Part shown: one piece after another, positions 1 to 56,425 of the stretch
Layout of the letters: each line of letters starts with the position of its first letter
Numbering within the stretch: the first letter of the stretch is position 1
DNA from: an uncultured delta proteobacterium
GTDB taxonomy: Bacteria; Desulfobacterota; Binatia; Binatales; Binataceae
Assembly: GCA_963774665.1 (NCBI GenBank)
Contig: CAVZGB010000010.1
Span: 515,677-579,676, forward strand
Length of the DNA: 64,000 bases
Reading direction: 5' to 3'
Position numbers and translations under genes: made by a program
The notes under the pieces: generated by a model
What the model saw: only the letters and a program-made list of their open reading frames with translations
Database searches by the model: none
Told to the model about the DNA's origin: nothing

Positions 1-926
1 GCATGTCGGATTTTTACGGCCCGCGCGACGATGCGCAGTCGATGGATACTCTCGAGCGCGCGCTCGAACTCGGCGTCACCTTCTGGGATACGTCGGACGC
101 CTACGGGCCGCATCGCAACGAGGAGCTGGTCGGCAGAGCGATTCGCGGGCGGCGCGACAAACTCGTAATCGCGACCAAGTTCGGAATCGTGCGCAAACCT
201 TCTGATCCCACTTTTCGCGAAATCAGTGGCCGCCCGGAGTACGTGCGCTCCGCTTGCGATGCGAGCCTCAAGCGCCTCGGCATCGACACGATCGATCTTT
301 ACTATCAGCATCGCGTCGATCCCAACACTCCGATTGAAGACACGGTCGGCGCGATGGCGCAGTTGGTGAAAGACGGCAAAGTGCGTTACCTCGGCCTGTC
401 CGAAGCCGCGCCGGAGACGATTCGGCGCGCGTGCAAGGTGCATCCGATCGCGGCGCTGCAGAATGAATACTCGCTGTGGAGCCGCGAGCCCGAAGACGGA
501 ACGCTCGCGACCTGCCGCGAGCTGGGAGTCGGGCTGGTCGCATACAGCCCGCTCGGTCGCGGATTTCTAACCGGTCAGATTCGCAAATTCGACGACCTGG
601 CGGCCGACGATTTCCGGCGCTTCTCGCCGCGCTTCCAGGGTGAGAATTTCGACAAGAATCTGCAGCTCGTCGCGCGTATTGAAGCAATCGCAAAGGACAA
701 GCATTGCACGCCCGGGCAACTCGCACTGGCGTGGGTGCTCGCGCAAGGCGACGACATCGTGCCGATACCAGGTACCAGGCGGCGCAAGTATCTCGAAGAG
801 AACGTCGGCGCGCTCGACGTCGTCCTCACTGCCGATGACCTCAAGCGCATCGACGAGGTCGCGCCGAAAGGCGTCGCAGCTGGAGGTCGATATCCCGCCG
901 CGATGATGGGTTCGCTCAATCGCTAG
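1..926 (+). CDS. Aldo/keto reductase (5' truncated by window edge)
   Basis: AKR motifs [26 protein letters not shown]; starts inside the usual GxMGMS segment. Confidence 0.92.
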
Positions 927-4914: not shown

Positions 4915-5524
4915 TCAGGAGGCGGCGCTGCCGCTGCGCCTGGGCTGGAACTTCGGTTCCTCGCCACGGGACAGGCGCATGATGTTCTCGCGATGGCGAA
5001 ACAGGGCGAGCGCCGTCATCAGGATCGCGAGCAGCAAATAGTGATGCGGCAAGCCGAGGGCGGCGACGACCGGCGGCAGCACAATAGCCGCAGCTATCGA
5101 GGCGAGCGACGTGATCCGGCTTATCGCAACGACCACGGCGAAAGCCGCGAGCGCGAACAGTATCGCCATCGGCGAGATCGCCAGCCAGATACCGAGCGCG
5201 CAAGCGATGCCCTTCCCGCCGCTGAAGCCGAGGAAGACAGAGCAAATCGCGCCGATAAACGCGGCCAGGCCGACCCACGCAATAGTCGATGGAGGAAAGC
5301 CCGCTGCGCGCGTGACAATCACTGGAATCGCGCCTTTGAGCGCGTCGCCAACGAGAGTCATCACGGCAGAACTGATGCCGCCCGCGCGCACCACGTTGGA
5401 CGCCCCGATATTGCCGGACCCGACCGCGCGCGGATCGAAGCCGCGCATCCGTCCGACGATCACGCCGGTCGGAATCGAGCCGATGAGGTACGCAGCGAGG
5501 ATCAAGAAGGAGTTCAGTGATCAC
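4915..5524 (-). CDS. plsY: Glycerol-3-phosphate acyltransferase PlsY (probable indel near 5505)
   Basis: YLIGSIP, GSGNIGASN, GGKGIA, RHRENI. Confidence 0.92.
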
Positions 5525-5582
5525 GTTTGTGCTGACTGGCCCCTGGAGGGCAATACACTGAAAAACAATTCACTGAAAAGAA

Positions 5583-5657
5583 TCGGGGTGACTGGATTTG
5601 AACCAGCGACTCCTGCGTCCCGAACGCAGTGCTCTGGCCAGGCTGAGCTACACCCCG
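5583..5657 (-). tRNA. tRNA-Pro(CGG), CCA not encoded
   Basis: CGGGGTG acceptor stem, anticodon arm CTGCG-TTCGGGA-CGCAG, T-loop GGTTCAAATCC. Confidence 0.95.
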
Positions 5658-5791
5658 TCTCCGGTTGCGCGTGATCGGGAAGGTACAGACGAGTGTTTAT
5701 AGCATTGGAGGCGGTAGCGCGCGAGTCCGGCGGGATGATCGGTGCTGTCTTAATTCGGCCCTGAGTGTCTGAATTTGGAATTGCTAGTGTC

Positions 5792-6064
5792 TTAATTTGA
5801 TTTGAGGCGCGGATCGTCGGTTGCGATGCATTGCCCAGCCTTTATTCGTCTTATTTTTTCCGCATCTCCGTCAGCTGTTTTTGCAAGTGCCGATGGAAGG
5901 TTGCCAGTGGCCATCATCGATTTGCAACTGTCACCGGTATCGAACGGGCCATTTTTATCCCACTGACTAAGCGGCGCGTTAACTTGACACCGGCTTCCAA
6001 CCAGTGGCGGGTATATTAACCACCAGCCCACAAGCGCGAGCGCGGTTGCGTGGTGGAGCTTCAT
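5792..6064 (-). CDS. 90-aa small protein of the MKxxHAxALALVGW...CIATDDPRLK family, copy 1
   Basis: ATGA overlap with the rpe stop; paralog at 54801-55064. Confidence 0.8.
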   Translation of the reverse strand: MKLHHATALALVGWWLIYPPLVGSRCQVNAPLSQWDKNGPFDTGDSCKSMMATGNLPSALAKTADGDAEKIRRIKAGQCIATDDPRLKSN

Positions 6065-6753
6065 GGCTGATGCGTATGCGCGACCAAATCGCGCATCTCG
6101 TCCATGATTTTCGTATAGTCGGGCTTGCCGAAGATCCCTGAGCCCGACACGAAGACATTGGCGCCGGCCGCCTTGACGTCCGCGATATTGCTGAGCTTTA
6201 CGCCGCCGTCGATCTCGACGTCGATACTGAGTCCGCGACGCTTCAGCTCGCGCCGGATGTAGCGCAGCTTGTCGAGCGCGGCCGGGATGAACTCCTGGCC
6301 GCCGAAGCCCGGATGCACGCTCATCACGAGGATCATGTCGAGATGCTCGGCGAAGGGCAGCACCTTGTCGGCGTCGGTCTCGGGATTGATTCCGATCGAT
6401 GCGCGCGCGCCGAGGTCGTGGATTCGCTTCGCCATCGCGGGGATGTCGGGGCAGACCTCGCAATGCACCGAAATTGAATTGGCGCCGGCCTTCACGAATG
6501 CCTCGACGTAGCGGGCCGGCTCGGAAATCATCAGGTGCGCATCGAGCGGCAGCTTCGTGACCTTGCGCACCGACTCCATCACCGGGATTCCAATCGAGAT
6601 GTTAGGCACGAAGTGCCCGTCCATCACGTCGAAATGAATCATGTCAGCGCCGGCATTCTCGACCGCGCGAATTTCCTCGCCGAGCCGCGCAAAGTCAGCA
6701 GACAGAATCGAAGGGGCAAGCTTGTCTCGGATATCTTCAGCCGGATATGCCAT
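6061..6753 (-). CDS. rpe: Ribulose-phosphate 3-epimerase
   Basis: APSILSADF, HFDVMDGHFVPN, MSVHPGFGGQ, IDGGV. Confidence 0.96.
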   Translation of the reverse strand: MAYPAEDIRDKLAPSILSADFARLGEEIRAVENAGADMIHFDVMDGHFVPNISIGIPVMESVRKVTKLPLDAHLMISEPARYVEAFVKAGANSISVHCEVCPDIPAMAKRIHDLGARASIGINPETDADKVLPFAEHLDMILVMSVHPGFGGQEFIPAALDKLRYIRRELKRRGLSIDVEIDGGVKLSNIADVKAAGANVFVSGSGIFGKPDYTKIMDEMRDLVAHTHQP

Positions 6754-53237: not shown

Positions 53238-53582
53238 TCAGGTCGCGACGTCGAGCCTGGCCGCTTTGCCGGACAGTCCGCGCAGATAGTAGAGGCGGGC
53301 GCGGCGTACGCGGTTTCGCGTCAGCACTTGCAGCTTGTCGATTCGCGGCGAATGCATCGGGAATATTCGCTCGACGCCGACGCCGTACGAAACCTTGCGC
53401 ACGGTGAAGGTCGCGCGATTGGCGCCGCGATTCATTTTGATCACGATGCCTTCGAAAGACTGGATGCGCTCTTTTTCGCCTTCGACGACCTTGACGTGAA
53501 CGCGAACCGAGTCGCCGACGCGGAATTCAGGCAGGTCCTTGCGCAGGCCCCGCTCTTCGAGCTTCTGGATAACGGTATTCAT
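53238..53582 (-). CDS. rplS: 50S ribosomal protein L19
   Basis: [36 protein letters not shown]. Confidence 0.97.
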
Positions 53583-54735: not shown

Positions 54736-54800
54736 CCAAAATTTTGCAGAACTGGCTGCGCGTTTCGACCTCGCGCAACTCTCCTGCTAGACGTGGAGGT

Positions 54801-55064
54801 ATGAAGCCTCGACATGCAGCCGCGCTCGCCTTGGTGGGCTGGTATCTGATGATCCCGCCTCGGGGCCATGATCAGCAGACGTTCGATGAACACGCTCCAC
54901 TCGCAAGCTGGTTCGTATTCAGCGCGCACGATGCCGCTCACGAATGCGAAGGAGCGAAGTTTCTGAATCGCGAAGGGCATAAGCAGAGCGGAGATCCGAT
55001 GAAGGCCGCGATGGACTCGGCGCAGTGTATCGCGACCGACGATCCGCGCCTCAAGGAAAAATAG
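54801..55064 (+). CDS. 87-aa small protein of the MKxxHAxALALVGW...CIATDDPRLK family, copy 2
   Basis: Paralog of 5792-6064. Confidence 0.82.
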   Translation: MKPRHAAALALVGWYLMIPPRGHDQQTFDEHAPLASWFVFSAHDAAHECEGAKFLNREGHKQSGDPMKAAMDSAQCIATDDPRLKEK

Positions 55065-55161
55065 CGCGCCGCGGTTCATCGTGATTAATGCGGCGCTCTT
55101 CGCCGAGCAGGACAATACTGCTCCGCGTCCTTAGAATGACAAAAAAAGAGCAGGCGCGGGG

Positions 55162-55719
55162 TTACTTGCCGCGGAGGCGGTCCAGGATGATTCCTGCGGC
55201 CGAGCGCACTGACAGGTGATTGTAGTCGCTGGGGCCTATGATCGGTGCGAGCACGATGTCGGCGCGTTCTGCGACTTCGGGCGACATTCCGAATCCTGTA
55301 CCCAGAAGAATCATCATCGGAGGAGCGTCTGGAGCCTCCAGCCGCGCGCGCAAATCGGCGTAGCTGGTACCGCCTTCTGTGCGCGCGGATGTGTGCACGA
55401 TCAGCGGGCGCGCGCCCGAGATTCGCGATGCCTCCGCGATTGCGTCGTCGAGCTCCGCGACTATTTGCACGCGCTCGAGCGCCTCGCGACGGCGCGAATC
55501 GTGCGCGCGGCCGAAGTCGAAGCGCCAATGATCGATCACACTGGCCGCGAATTTCCGCTGCTCTGGAATCGGATGCACGATGAACACACCGCGTACGTCG
55601 TAGGTTCGCGACGCGCGCGCGATGTCGTGAATGTCGAGGCTGGTGATCGCCGACGTGACAATCTCCGCGTTGCGATTGACGACCGGATGATGAATCAGCG
55701 CTACGAAAAGGTCGTTCAC
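55162..55719 (-). CDS. SPOUT-type SAM-dependent RNA methyltransferase (trmD-associated family)
   Basis: ALIHHPV, DIHDIAR..RTY, GTGFG, YNHLSVRSA..IILDRL. Confidence 0.85.
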   Translation of the reverse strand: MNDLFVALIHHPVVNRNAEIVTSAITSLDIHDIARASRTYDVRGVFIVHPIPEQRKFAASVIDHWRFDFGRAHDSRRREALERVQIVAELDDAIAEASRISGARPLIVHTSARTEGGTSYADLRARLEAPDAPPMMILLGTGFGMSPEVAERADIVLAPIIGPSDYNHLSVRSAAGIILDRLRGK

Positions 55720-55738
55720 GTTTTCAGAATTTGCACGG

Positions 55739-56425
55739 TCAGAACTTGCGCCGCTCGAGCAGGTCGGGGCGCCGCCGCGCAGTTCGCCGTTTTGCTTCGG
55801 CCTCGCGCCACGCGCGAATCTTGCCATGGTCGCCGCTGAGCAGAATTTCCGGCACCGTCATGCCGCGAAACTCCTCAGGCCGAGTGTACTGCGGATATTC
55901 CAGCATCCCGGCGGCGAACGATTCCTCGTCGAGCGACTCGGGATTGCCAAGCACGCCCGGCAGCATCCTGCCGACCGCTTCGATCACCGCCATCGCGGGG
56001 ATTTCGCCGCCGCTCAGCACGTAGTCGCCGATGGAAATTTCCTGATCCACCAGCGATCGCACGCGCTCGTCGATTCCTTCGTAACGGCCCGCGACGATCA
56101 TCAGGCCGGGCGAGCGCTTGGCGAGATCGCGCGCCATCGAGTTGTCGAACACTTCGCCCTGCGGCGTCATCAGGATGCGCCACAGTCCCGGATGCTGCGC
56201 ATCGACCGCGTCGATCGCCGCGGCGATCGGCTCCGGCCGCATCACCATTCCACTGCCGCCGCCGTAGGGGGCGTCATCGACCTGCCGATAGTTGCCGAGA
56301 CCATGCTCGCGCAGCGGATGCGCCTTGATTGCGATCAGTCCCTGCTCGACGGCACGTCCGATCATGCCGCCGCGAAACGGCGACTCGAACATCTCGGGGA
56401 ACAGGGTGATTACGTGAAATTCCAT
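55739..56425 (-). CDS. trmD: tRNA (guanine37-N1)-methyltransferase
   Basis: VDDAPYGGGSGMVM, GRYEGIDER, SIGDYVLSGGE, YPQYTRP. Confidence 0.97.
   Translation of the reverse strand: MEFHVITLFPEMFESPFRGGMIGRAVEQGLIAIKAHPLREHGLGNYRQVDDAPYGGGSGMVMRPEPIAAAIDAVDAQHPGLWRILMTPQGEVFDNSMARDLAKRSPGLMIVAGRYEGIDERVRSLVDQEISIGDYVLSGGEIPAMAVIEAVGRMLPGVLGNPESLDEESFAAGMLEYPQYTRPEEFRGMTVPEILLSGDHGKIRAWREAEAKRRTARRRPDLLERRKF

Follow-up and report, generated by a model that had tools for sequence, protein, structure and literature searches.

Unit-sized replacement and relocation of genes in a family of small Binataceae proteins with conserved ends

We analysed a window of 64,000 nucleotides (nt) from an uncultured Binataceae bacterium (contig CAVZGB010000010.1; C10:515677-579676), which contains two members of a family of small proteins whose genes resemble one another in DNA at their ends. 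The assembly comprises 5.48 Mb in 24 contigs with a guanine-plus-cytosine (GC) content of 59.9%, and the genome (G000) is 92% complete. Copy 1 (P0001; 5792..6064, minus strand) encodes a family member of 90 amino acids (aa). Its open reading frame (ORF) forms an ATGA overlap with rpe, the gene for ribulose-phosphate 3-epimerase (PF00834; 6061..6753, minus strand), and tRNA-Pro(CGG) lies on its other side (5583..5657, minus strand); rpe and tRNA-Pro(CGG) are the left and right flanks of a polymorphic site. Copy 2 (P0002; 54801..55064, plus strand), of 87 aa, has trmD (Methyltrn_RNA_4; 55162-56425, minus strand) on one flank and rplS (53253-53573, minus strand) on the other side, and adjoins a NUDIX gene. 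An earlier note on this DNA had placed copy 1 between rpe and tRNA-Pro and copy 2 antisense within the trmD-rplS cluster; both placements are correct, though two further plus-strand genes also lie between trmD and rplS.

The copy 1 and copy 2 proteins are 39% identical (BLASTP, 36 of 93 columns, expectation value (E) 2e-15) and have in common the motifs M-K-x-x-H-A-x-A-L-A-L-V-G-W, A-P-L-x-x-W, a Cys after a D/S block, and Q-C-I-A-T-D-D-P-R-L-K. Both ORFs and their shared motifs were thus recovered as described, by BLASTP and in an alignment of 13 paralogs. Identity of the DNA at the C-terminal end, also claimed before, holds for a stretch of 20 nt, and the similarity is 90.9% over 33 nt by blastn. 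The core of copy 1 is AT-richer, as had been remarked, with a GC content of 0.51 (0.43 at third codon positions) versus 0.60 in the first 57 nt and 0.599 in the genome. A consensus scan for promoters and terminators around copy 1 returned 0 sites.

The presence of two copies in the window had been taken as a sign of a much larger family, and this expectation is borne out. An iterated profile search of the six-frame ORFs of G000, run to convergence, gave 15 family matches, of which 13 are full-length, one is divergent and one is truncated; one of the 13 full-length copies is without the C-terminal motif, and a motif scan revealed further truncated starts. Identities of the 13 paralogs to copy 2 range from 26 to 43%. 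Matches were found in all 24 other same-genus genomes (2-24 each), in 65 of 80 other Binataceae genomes representing 25 of 30 genera, and in 4 of 16 genomes from other families of the class. These tallies, like the ortholog searches for copies 1 and 2 and the coordinate-based count of empty sites given below, take in the unpublished genomes G019, G024 and G105; sequence-level claims draw on the other genomes. Public protein sets contributed 2197 matches at 90% clustering and 4772 representatives at 50% identity clustering, the source names being only 'hypothetical protein' from Binataceae-type metagenome-assembled genomes (MAGs). A search of 185,579 species genomes for an exact 23-nt word from the 5' end of the gene gave 104 stretches, and by record title nearly all of the 80 loci listed belong to Binataceae-type MAGs (Candidatus Binatus, Binataceae, 'uncultured delta proteobacterium') from soil and peat.

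The family had also been described as one without a known function, and it matched nothing in the five libraries that we searched: Pfam and NCBIfam (E up to 10), PADLOC and PHROGs (E up to 1), and the PDB sequences, queried with a 104-sequence profile. Foldseek searches with the copy 2 model gave best E values of 3.3 (PDB) and 0.15 (BFVD), with nothing at 0.001 or below, and the ESM Atlas held nothing beyond unnamed Binatota clusters. The DNA of the copy 1 unit had zero matches among plasmids, and P0002 had zero among GenBank phages. Searches of the literature on Binatia, Binatota or Binatus and on small secreted or hypervariable gene families, and of the text of PMC8262859, gave no description of the family. 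The family is uncharacterised and restricted to the Binataceae, and its members are small proteins of one domain. The 23-nt word is present in two IMG/VR stretches (L220:2624-2953 and L221:8878-9207), which encode the same 109-aa family member with an ATGA overlap to an upstream 68-aa ORF; these could be prophage or mis-called viral contigs.

The resemblance in DNA is located in the outer parts of the unit. The 5' block of copy 1 (6008..6064, minus strand) consists of the first 57 nt, encodes the short N-terminal tail and the predicted strand 1, and is conserved at the DNA level among paralogs; the C-terminal block (5792..5833, minus strand) is QCIATDDPRLKSN plus the stop codon. The corresponding 5' block of copy 2 (54801..54857, plus strand) has many matches elsewhere at 84-88%, and its C-terminal block (55023..55064, plus strand) ends in LKEK followed by TAG. 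By blastn within G000, only the ends of copies 1 and 2 recur in other copies, never the cores, and the first ~57 nt and last ~40 nt are alike across paralogs that are otherwise 30-45% identical. In 80 units anchored at their ATG, conservation begins exactly at the start codon: each of the 40 columns upstream holds ~0.2 bit or less, the consensus farther upstream is without any conserved base, and the 57 nt from the ATG on are near-constant. By a classification with crude patterns, 47 of 82 units found by the 23-nt word end in the family C-terminal motif, 16 are open for fewer than 65 codons, and 30 then have a 3' element described below. At least 10 of the 80 units are directly preceded by the end of another family gene, indicating that short tandems are common.

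For the 13 paralogs of G000 we determined how often identical residues are encoded by the same codon, with the expectation taken from codon usage and with the conserved middle block serving as an internal control for shared ancestry. Same-codon use was 0.526 in the N-terminal block compared to 0.352 expected (z 6.0, 0 of 2000 simulations) and 0.541 in the C-terminal block compared to 0.445 expected (z 2.8, 9 of 2000), where the simulation counts are not exact probabilities because paralogs and relatives are non-independent. In the middle block the value was 0.438 versus 0.425 expected (z 0.4). A comparison of synonymous conservation between ends and interior, which the earlier note had put forward as a check, thus sets the ends, which exceed codon usage, apart from the conserved middle block, which does not. 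Synonymous variation is present at several codons of the 5' block. Two minor features of this block were also recorded. Copy 1 contains GCTGGTGG (window 6020-6027, minus strand), the octamer that acts as Chi in Escherichia coli, where other copies have GCTGGTAT. In addition, a 12-nt direct repeat, 83% alike, connects 6034-6045 in the block with 5719-5730 in a conserved spacer that lies just beyond the 3' element and occurs at empty sites too; the repeat may be due to chance.

Copy 1 belongs to a subfamily in which the unit ends with a 3' element of 58 nt (5741..5798, minus strand). The element consists of three direct repeats of a AATTAAGACAC-like motif, spaced 22 and 20 nt, and the copy 1 stop codon falls in repeat 1. 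A search of window 5700-6110, which includes the copy 1 unit, gave 0 inverted repeats, with the three direct repeats found instead. There are 93 matches to the element in 38 of 47 genus genomes, at 0-5 per genome, and in 26 of 35 elements read the 5' block lies on the same strand within 1300 nt upstream. In 5 of 45 elements an identical substitution is seen in each of the three repeats, where ~0.45 would be expected under independence. The sense RNA of the element is unusually unstructured, folding worse than 198 of 200 shuffles (antisense z -0.96). A search of window 5500-6300 against Rfam matched only the tRNA, and a word from the element was found in 0 stretches of IMG/VR. Within G000 the element is found after copy 1, after a membrane-protein ORF whose start is related, and after three truncated blocks in which the filling is unrelated sequence; it is missing from copy 2 and from most of the genome's other paralogs, which end in L-K-E-K and TAG. 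The membrane-protein ORF stands directly after a family gene (L004; G000 C18:139537-140270), starts with V-N-L-R-H-A-A-A-L-A-I-V, and ends in a diverged 3' element. Truncated 5' blocks lie at C20:218371-218726, C16:430751-431375, C13:54745-55109 and C16:182685-182726 of G000; the first three of these are followed by 250-560 nt of unrelated sequence and then the 3' element, the filling at C20 containing an 83-codon ORF of its own.

Different units occupy the rpe|tRNA-Pro site in different genomes. The closest relative of copy 1 in 40 other same-genus genomes is 48% identical, with no ortholog above this level. In G044 a family gene lies at the same place that is 46% identical to copy 1, and the rpe protein is 92% identical. 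Among 25 loci for which both flanks were read, 6 are empty, 13 carry the 5' block (12 by pattern and G054 by eye), and 6 have other inserts; 12 more genomes appear empty as judged by coordinates. Empty sites, which had been proposed as something to look for in relatives, therefore exist, and by eye they retain a repeat-like remnant just after the rpe stop. The 13 block-bearing loci include five intact family ORFs with different cores, one frameshifted ORF, and non-family cargo such as a membrane protein and a lipoprotein-like start. At L038 (G016) and L055 (G060), a different palindromic repeat replaces the family unit in the spacer.

The five intact ORFs at this site were compared with their surroundings (10 pairs, mean nt identity). 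The flanks are similar, at 0.87 for the last 300 nt of rpe and 0.87 for the remaining non-coding spacer, and the conserved parts of the unit are somewhat below this, at 0.79 for the 57-nt 5' block, 0.77 for the C-terminal block and 0.78 for the 3' element. The cores have an identity of 0.49, compared to 0.48 (standard deviation 0.03) for shuffled cores, and differ in length. That the ends are less alike than the flanks suggests that whole units including their ends were exchanged, an observation that a site-specific mechanism would explain equally well. In a tree built from rpe and 500 nt upstream, empty and occupied sites are interspersed with strong support; occupied G061 is sister to empty G012 (99/99), and occupied G044 is sister to empty G009 plus G059 (100/99). 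Two further syntenic groups, from public MAG loci, have flanks of 75-96% identity and cores that are unalignable from about +45..59 to the stop codon.

Units were also found at unrelated sites. Orthologs of copy 2 in G013 and G006 have ~90% nt identity over the ORF and unrelated flanks, so that each of the three genomes has this unit at a different, unrelated site. Similarity to the G013 ortholog extends over 54758..55073 (plus strand), which covers the ORF together with ~44 nt upstream and ~9 nt downstream. When the convergent NUDIX|Methyltrn_RNA_4 spacer (54736-55161; loci L161-L189) was read in 18 genomes including G000, the copy 2 unit was present only in G000; 4 genomes have nothing there, a family gene on the opposite strand is present in G059, and 12 carry 28-304 nt consisting mostly of small palindromic repeats that resemble repetitive extragenic palindromes or miniature inverted-repeat transposable elements (REP/MITE-like). 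The G000 spacer keeps a remnant of a REP/MITE-like unit downstream of copy 2. A second relocated unit, at the rpe site in G021 and elsewhere in G006, is 89% identical over 317 nt, and its homology runs from the ATG to the end of the 3' element. At the level of sequence, these comparisons establish unit-sized replacement, relocation and presence or absence, and confine DNA-level conservation to the unit ends. Core lineages are under purifying selection: the ratio of nonsynonymous to synonymous substitution rates (dN/dS) is 0.09-0.11 among the three orthologs of copy 2, and another pair has 0.28. Each core lineage is, on this reading, a functional protein that is itself conserved. Based on these values, the variety of cores appears to be a standing pool of old variants that are reshuffled, gained and lost, and not the product of in-situ hypermutation.

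We also examined the predicted structure of the proteins. Residues W14, L16, P33, W37, C49 and C76 are invariant in the 13 paralogs, and in a 104-sequence alignment C76 is invariant and C49 is present in at least 90%. AlphaFold2 models made with family alignments predict the same topology for both copies, with a mean predicted local distance difference test (pLDDT) of 87 for copy 2 and 81 for copy 1: the first strand spans residues 14-18 and a second follows A-P-L-S-x-W, after which two helices, separated by a variable loop that is poorly defined, lead to a strand with C-I-A-T and a short D-P-R-L turn. The domain comprises ~75 residues, with strand 1 reading G-W-Y-L-M-x-P-P, strand 2, two helices, strand 3 reading C-I/V-A, and then D-D-P-R-L. 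The segments between the conserved blocks had been called unrelated; variability is indeed seen in the linker that follows strand 1 and in the loop that joins the helices, but both copies are predicted to share one fold.

Relatives of 231-333 aa (P0123, P0129, P0217 and P0238) carry the domain in 2-4 tandem copies preceded by classical export signals, indicating that it also exists as a repeat module. P0129 and P0238 begin with a classical signal peptide followed by three and two domain copies, respectively, each starting with (G/A)-W-Y-L/F, and P0217 has a transmembrane segment, a linker and two domain copies. Lipobox-type starts occur in some family or block-bearing ORFs, and A-x-A sites follow the same 5' block in L076, L113 and L130. 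The 13 paralogs have K, R or H in positions 2-5 and a best 12-residue Kyte-Doolittle window of 1.6-2.6 that begins at residues 6-10; this hydrophobic stretch is short, overlaps predicted strand 1 and is without a classical A-x-A site, with only 13 residues ahead of strand 1 in single-domain members. Taking the export signals of the relatives together with the lipobox and A-x-A starts and the invariant Cys pair, the domain most likely works outside the cytoplasm, and the Cys pair is compatible with a disulfide. The proposal of an exported scaffold in which a Cys pair is invariant and the loops vary finds agreement in the alignment, the two predicted models and the longer relatives. Small size, export, a scaffold with variable loops, patchy presence and purifying selection within types lead us to speculate on an envelope specificity repertoire, for example of inhibitors or immunity proteins directed at variable external agents, but assigning a role as binder, decoy or immunity protein is pure conjecture.

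We give about an even chance to the reading that whole units are exchanged by recombination at their conserved ends. The ends (the first ~57 nt, the last ~40 nt and, in the copy 1 subfamily, the 58-nt element) would act as homology anchors. Homologous recombination, either inside one genome or with a relative's DNA, would act by gene conversion or allelic replacement and exchange the whole unit at a fixed site for another unit, and the same exchanges would keep the ends homogenised. Shuffling by recombination at the ends had been suggested in the earlier note, and it is consistent with the site comparisons and the codon test. Several points weigh against it. No recombination event or breakpoint was directly observed, and the genomes compared are all MAGs. 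Recombination between homologous ends cannot by itself colonise a site without a resident unit, and of the 17 other genomes in which the copy 2 spacer was read, 16 have no unit there. No donor was found for the copy 1 core in the 40 genomes searched, where the best identity is 48%. At the rpe site the 5' block and the element, at 0.79 and 0.78, fall below the true flanks at 0.87. Codon sharing in the 5' block could instead reflect selection on the start of translation or on export, and export itself was deduced from relatives and a short hydrophobic stretch. Finally, for 9 of 35 elements the pattern located no 5' block within 1300 nt; a diverged lipoprotein-type start is present in at least 3 of these.

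The sharp borders of the exchanged unit, which coincide with the ATG and the end of the element, would also fit mobile cassettes moved by a dedicated trans-acting recombinase or transposase that recognises the triple repeat and perhaps the 5' block. Three repeats at a spacing of ~21 nt resemble arrays of protein-binding sites, and the concerted changes in 5 of 45 elements against ~0.45 expected, the unrelated cargo between the same ends, the alternation of occupied with empty sites, and the remnant seen by eye after the rpe stop at 'empty' sites all suit such an enzyme. We nevertheless consider it unlikely, if a serious candidate, in that the best integron integrase match (TIGR02249) in G000 scores 78.6 bits versus a cut-off of 265, and no gene, be it for a peptidase, recombinase, maturase, transporter or any other product, is shared among the neighbours (ORFs of at least 70 aa within 5 kb) at 15 G000 loci. 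Furthermore, the copy 1 unit has no inverted repeats, conservation is absent upstream of the ATG, units such as copy 2 moved although they are without the element, and there are just 0-5 elements per genome; no candidate enzyme was found, and no search for one was made across genomes. The earlier suggestion of a co-occurring recombinase, reverse transcriptase or peptidase was likewise not upheld in G000 by the searches for reverse transcriptase (RVT_1) and integron integrase or by the 15 neighbourhoods. An extended version, which we regard as rather doubtful, would be a new cassette system throughout the Binataceae, with the 5' block as an export-signal module, three phased direct repeats as a new 3' recombination site, and a putative dedicated enzyme that inserts, exchanges and removes members of a pan-genomic library of small envelope proteins at particular chromosomal sites. 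The library would consist mostly of one disulfide-stapled scaffold with variable loops but also of lipoproteins and membrane proteins, and might form a fast-changing periplasmic repertoire of specificities, such as immunity or anti-phage factors. Two known types of element were rejected: an origin from a MITE or insertion sequence, given the lack of inverted repeats in the copy 1 unit, of conservation upstream of the ATG (80 units) and of duplications at junctions read by eye; and an integron, given an IntI score below the cut-off and repeats that are direct, not inverted.

The ends could alternatively be kept only by selection on the product or mRNA, that is, on the export signal, start region, C-terminal motif and 3' untranslated region, with turnover due to ordinary gain, loss and horizontal transfer. 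The N-terminus encoded by the 5' block is indeed hydrophobic and is also found at the head of lipoproteins and of proteins with A-x-A sites, the block's conservation begins at the start codon, several of its codons vary synonymously, and cores are under purifying selection. We find this reading quite doubtful, because in two independent cases the homology between relocated copies stops precisely at the borders of the unit, replacement at three syntenic sites is limited to the stretch between the ends, truncated and evidently non-functional units retain block and element, and the conserved middle block is without codon sharing. Precursors of secreted peptides or bacteriocins, with a conserved leader, variable core, recognition tail and shared maturase, would match the conserved ends and variable middle, the many copies per genome and the small size. 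This idea, raised in the earlier note, gained nothing in its favour from the analysis and is very improbable, in view of two confident models (pLDDT 87 and 81) of one compact fold that uses both ends, conserved residues in the middle as well, domains in tandem within larger exported proteins, and no conserved maturase or transporter neighbour at the 15 loci. A variable middle between constant ends could also arise if vertically inherited paralogs diverged very fast in place, by diversifying selection or by hypermutation such as that of a diversity-generating retroelement (DGR). Such divergence is barely credible, as cores at the same site are at shuffled level and of unequal length beside 87% identical neutral spacer, orthologous cores have dN/dS of 0.09-0.28, no reverse transcriptase (RVT_1) was matched in the 92% complete genome, and neither core has a template-like second copy in G000; a DGR or other hypermutation system was rejected on these grounds.

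A gene family of comparable form is the variable major protein system of Borrelia hermsii, which is reported to use gene conversion between upstream and downstream homology sequences (UHS and DHS) (PMC6011951). The likeness includes a homology block at the gene start over the export signal, a repeated extragenic downstream element, and many variant genes that are alike only at their ends, with the whole coding unit between them replaced. The Binataceae copies differ in being mostly complete ORFs with start codons at dispersed sites, with no sign of one expression site and a silent archive; their host is free-living in soil, exchange is seen between species or strains and not within a clone, and the proteins are unrelated.

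Other systems share some of these features. Integron gene cassettes consist of a promoterless ORF followed by an attC site and are mobilised by the IntI integrase. They resemble the Binataceae units in being short and ORF-sized, with a conserved 3' element, heterogeneous cargo, and presence or absence at a site, but attC is an imperfect inverted repeat in contrast to the triple direct repeat, IntI is not found above the cut-off in G000, and the units, which have a conserved coding 5' end, are scattered or form tandems of 2-3 in place of an attI array. The prochlorosins of marine cyanobacteria are made from precursor peptides with a constant leader and a hypervariable core. They too are encoded by many dispersed small genes with one part conserved in DNA and the rest highly diverse across strains; in the Binataceae family, however, conservation extends to both ends, which are parts of a single folded domain, and there is no maturase neighbour. 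A last comparison is with repertoires of orphan immunity genes against interbacterial toxins, among them recombinase-associated arrays in gut Bacteroidales. These genes are likewise small, diverse, often periplasmic, patchy and exchanged between strains, with purifying selection within a type, but no toxin partner, recombinase or array was found here, and the Binataceae members share one scaffold.

The family is an abundant domain family, unannotated in the libraries and source names checked, in a globally common uncultured soil lineage. The main known examples of whole-unit replacement between DNA-conserved ends are integrons and the antigenic variation of pathogens; free-living soil bacteria are not known for it. 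The analysis supplies concrete objects that can be tested, namely the 57-nt 5' block, the triple-repeat element of 58 nt, and polymorphic sites of which rpe|tRNA-Pro is an example, where some alleles are empty and others hold various inserts. Should the ends prove to be anchors for recombination, or the site of a new recombinase, they would offer a handle on the diversification of envelope proteins in uncultured bacteria, and could serve as a natural landing pad for genetics in Binataceae.

Some further observations concern the two loci. The copy 2 stop codon marks the beginning of an inverted repeat of 10 nt with a loop of 17 nt (window 55063-55099), which may be a terminator-like hairpin. 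The copy 1 arrangement is bridged piecewise, from the tRNA side to rpe, by identical or near-identical contigs of two soil DNA runs, which may include the source sample. RNA runs contain only small fractions of the window, and the copy 1 core is without cover in two RNA runs, libraries of a kind that can contain DNA. Contigs of metatranscriptome X17 match both conserved ends, and one of them links the ends across 226 other letters, which indicates, by its sequence, another family member.

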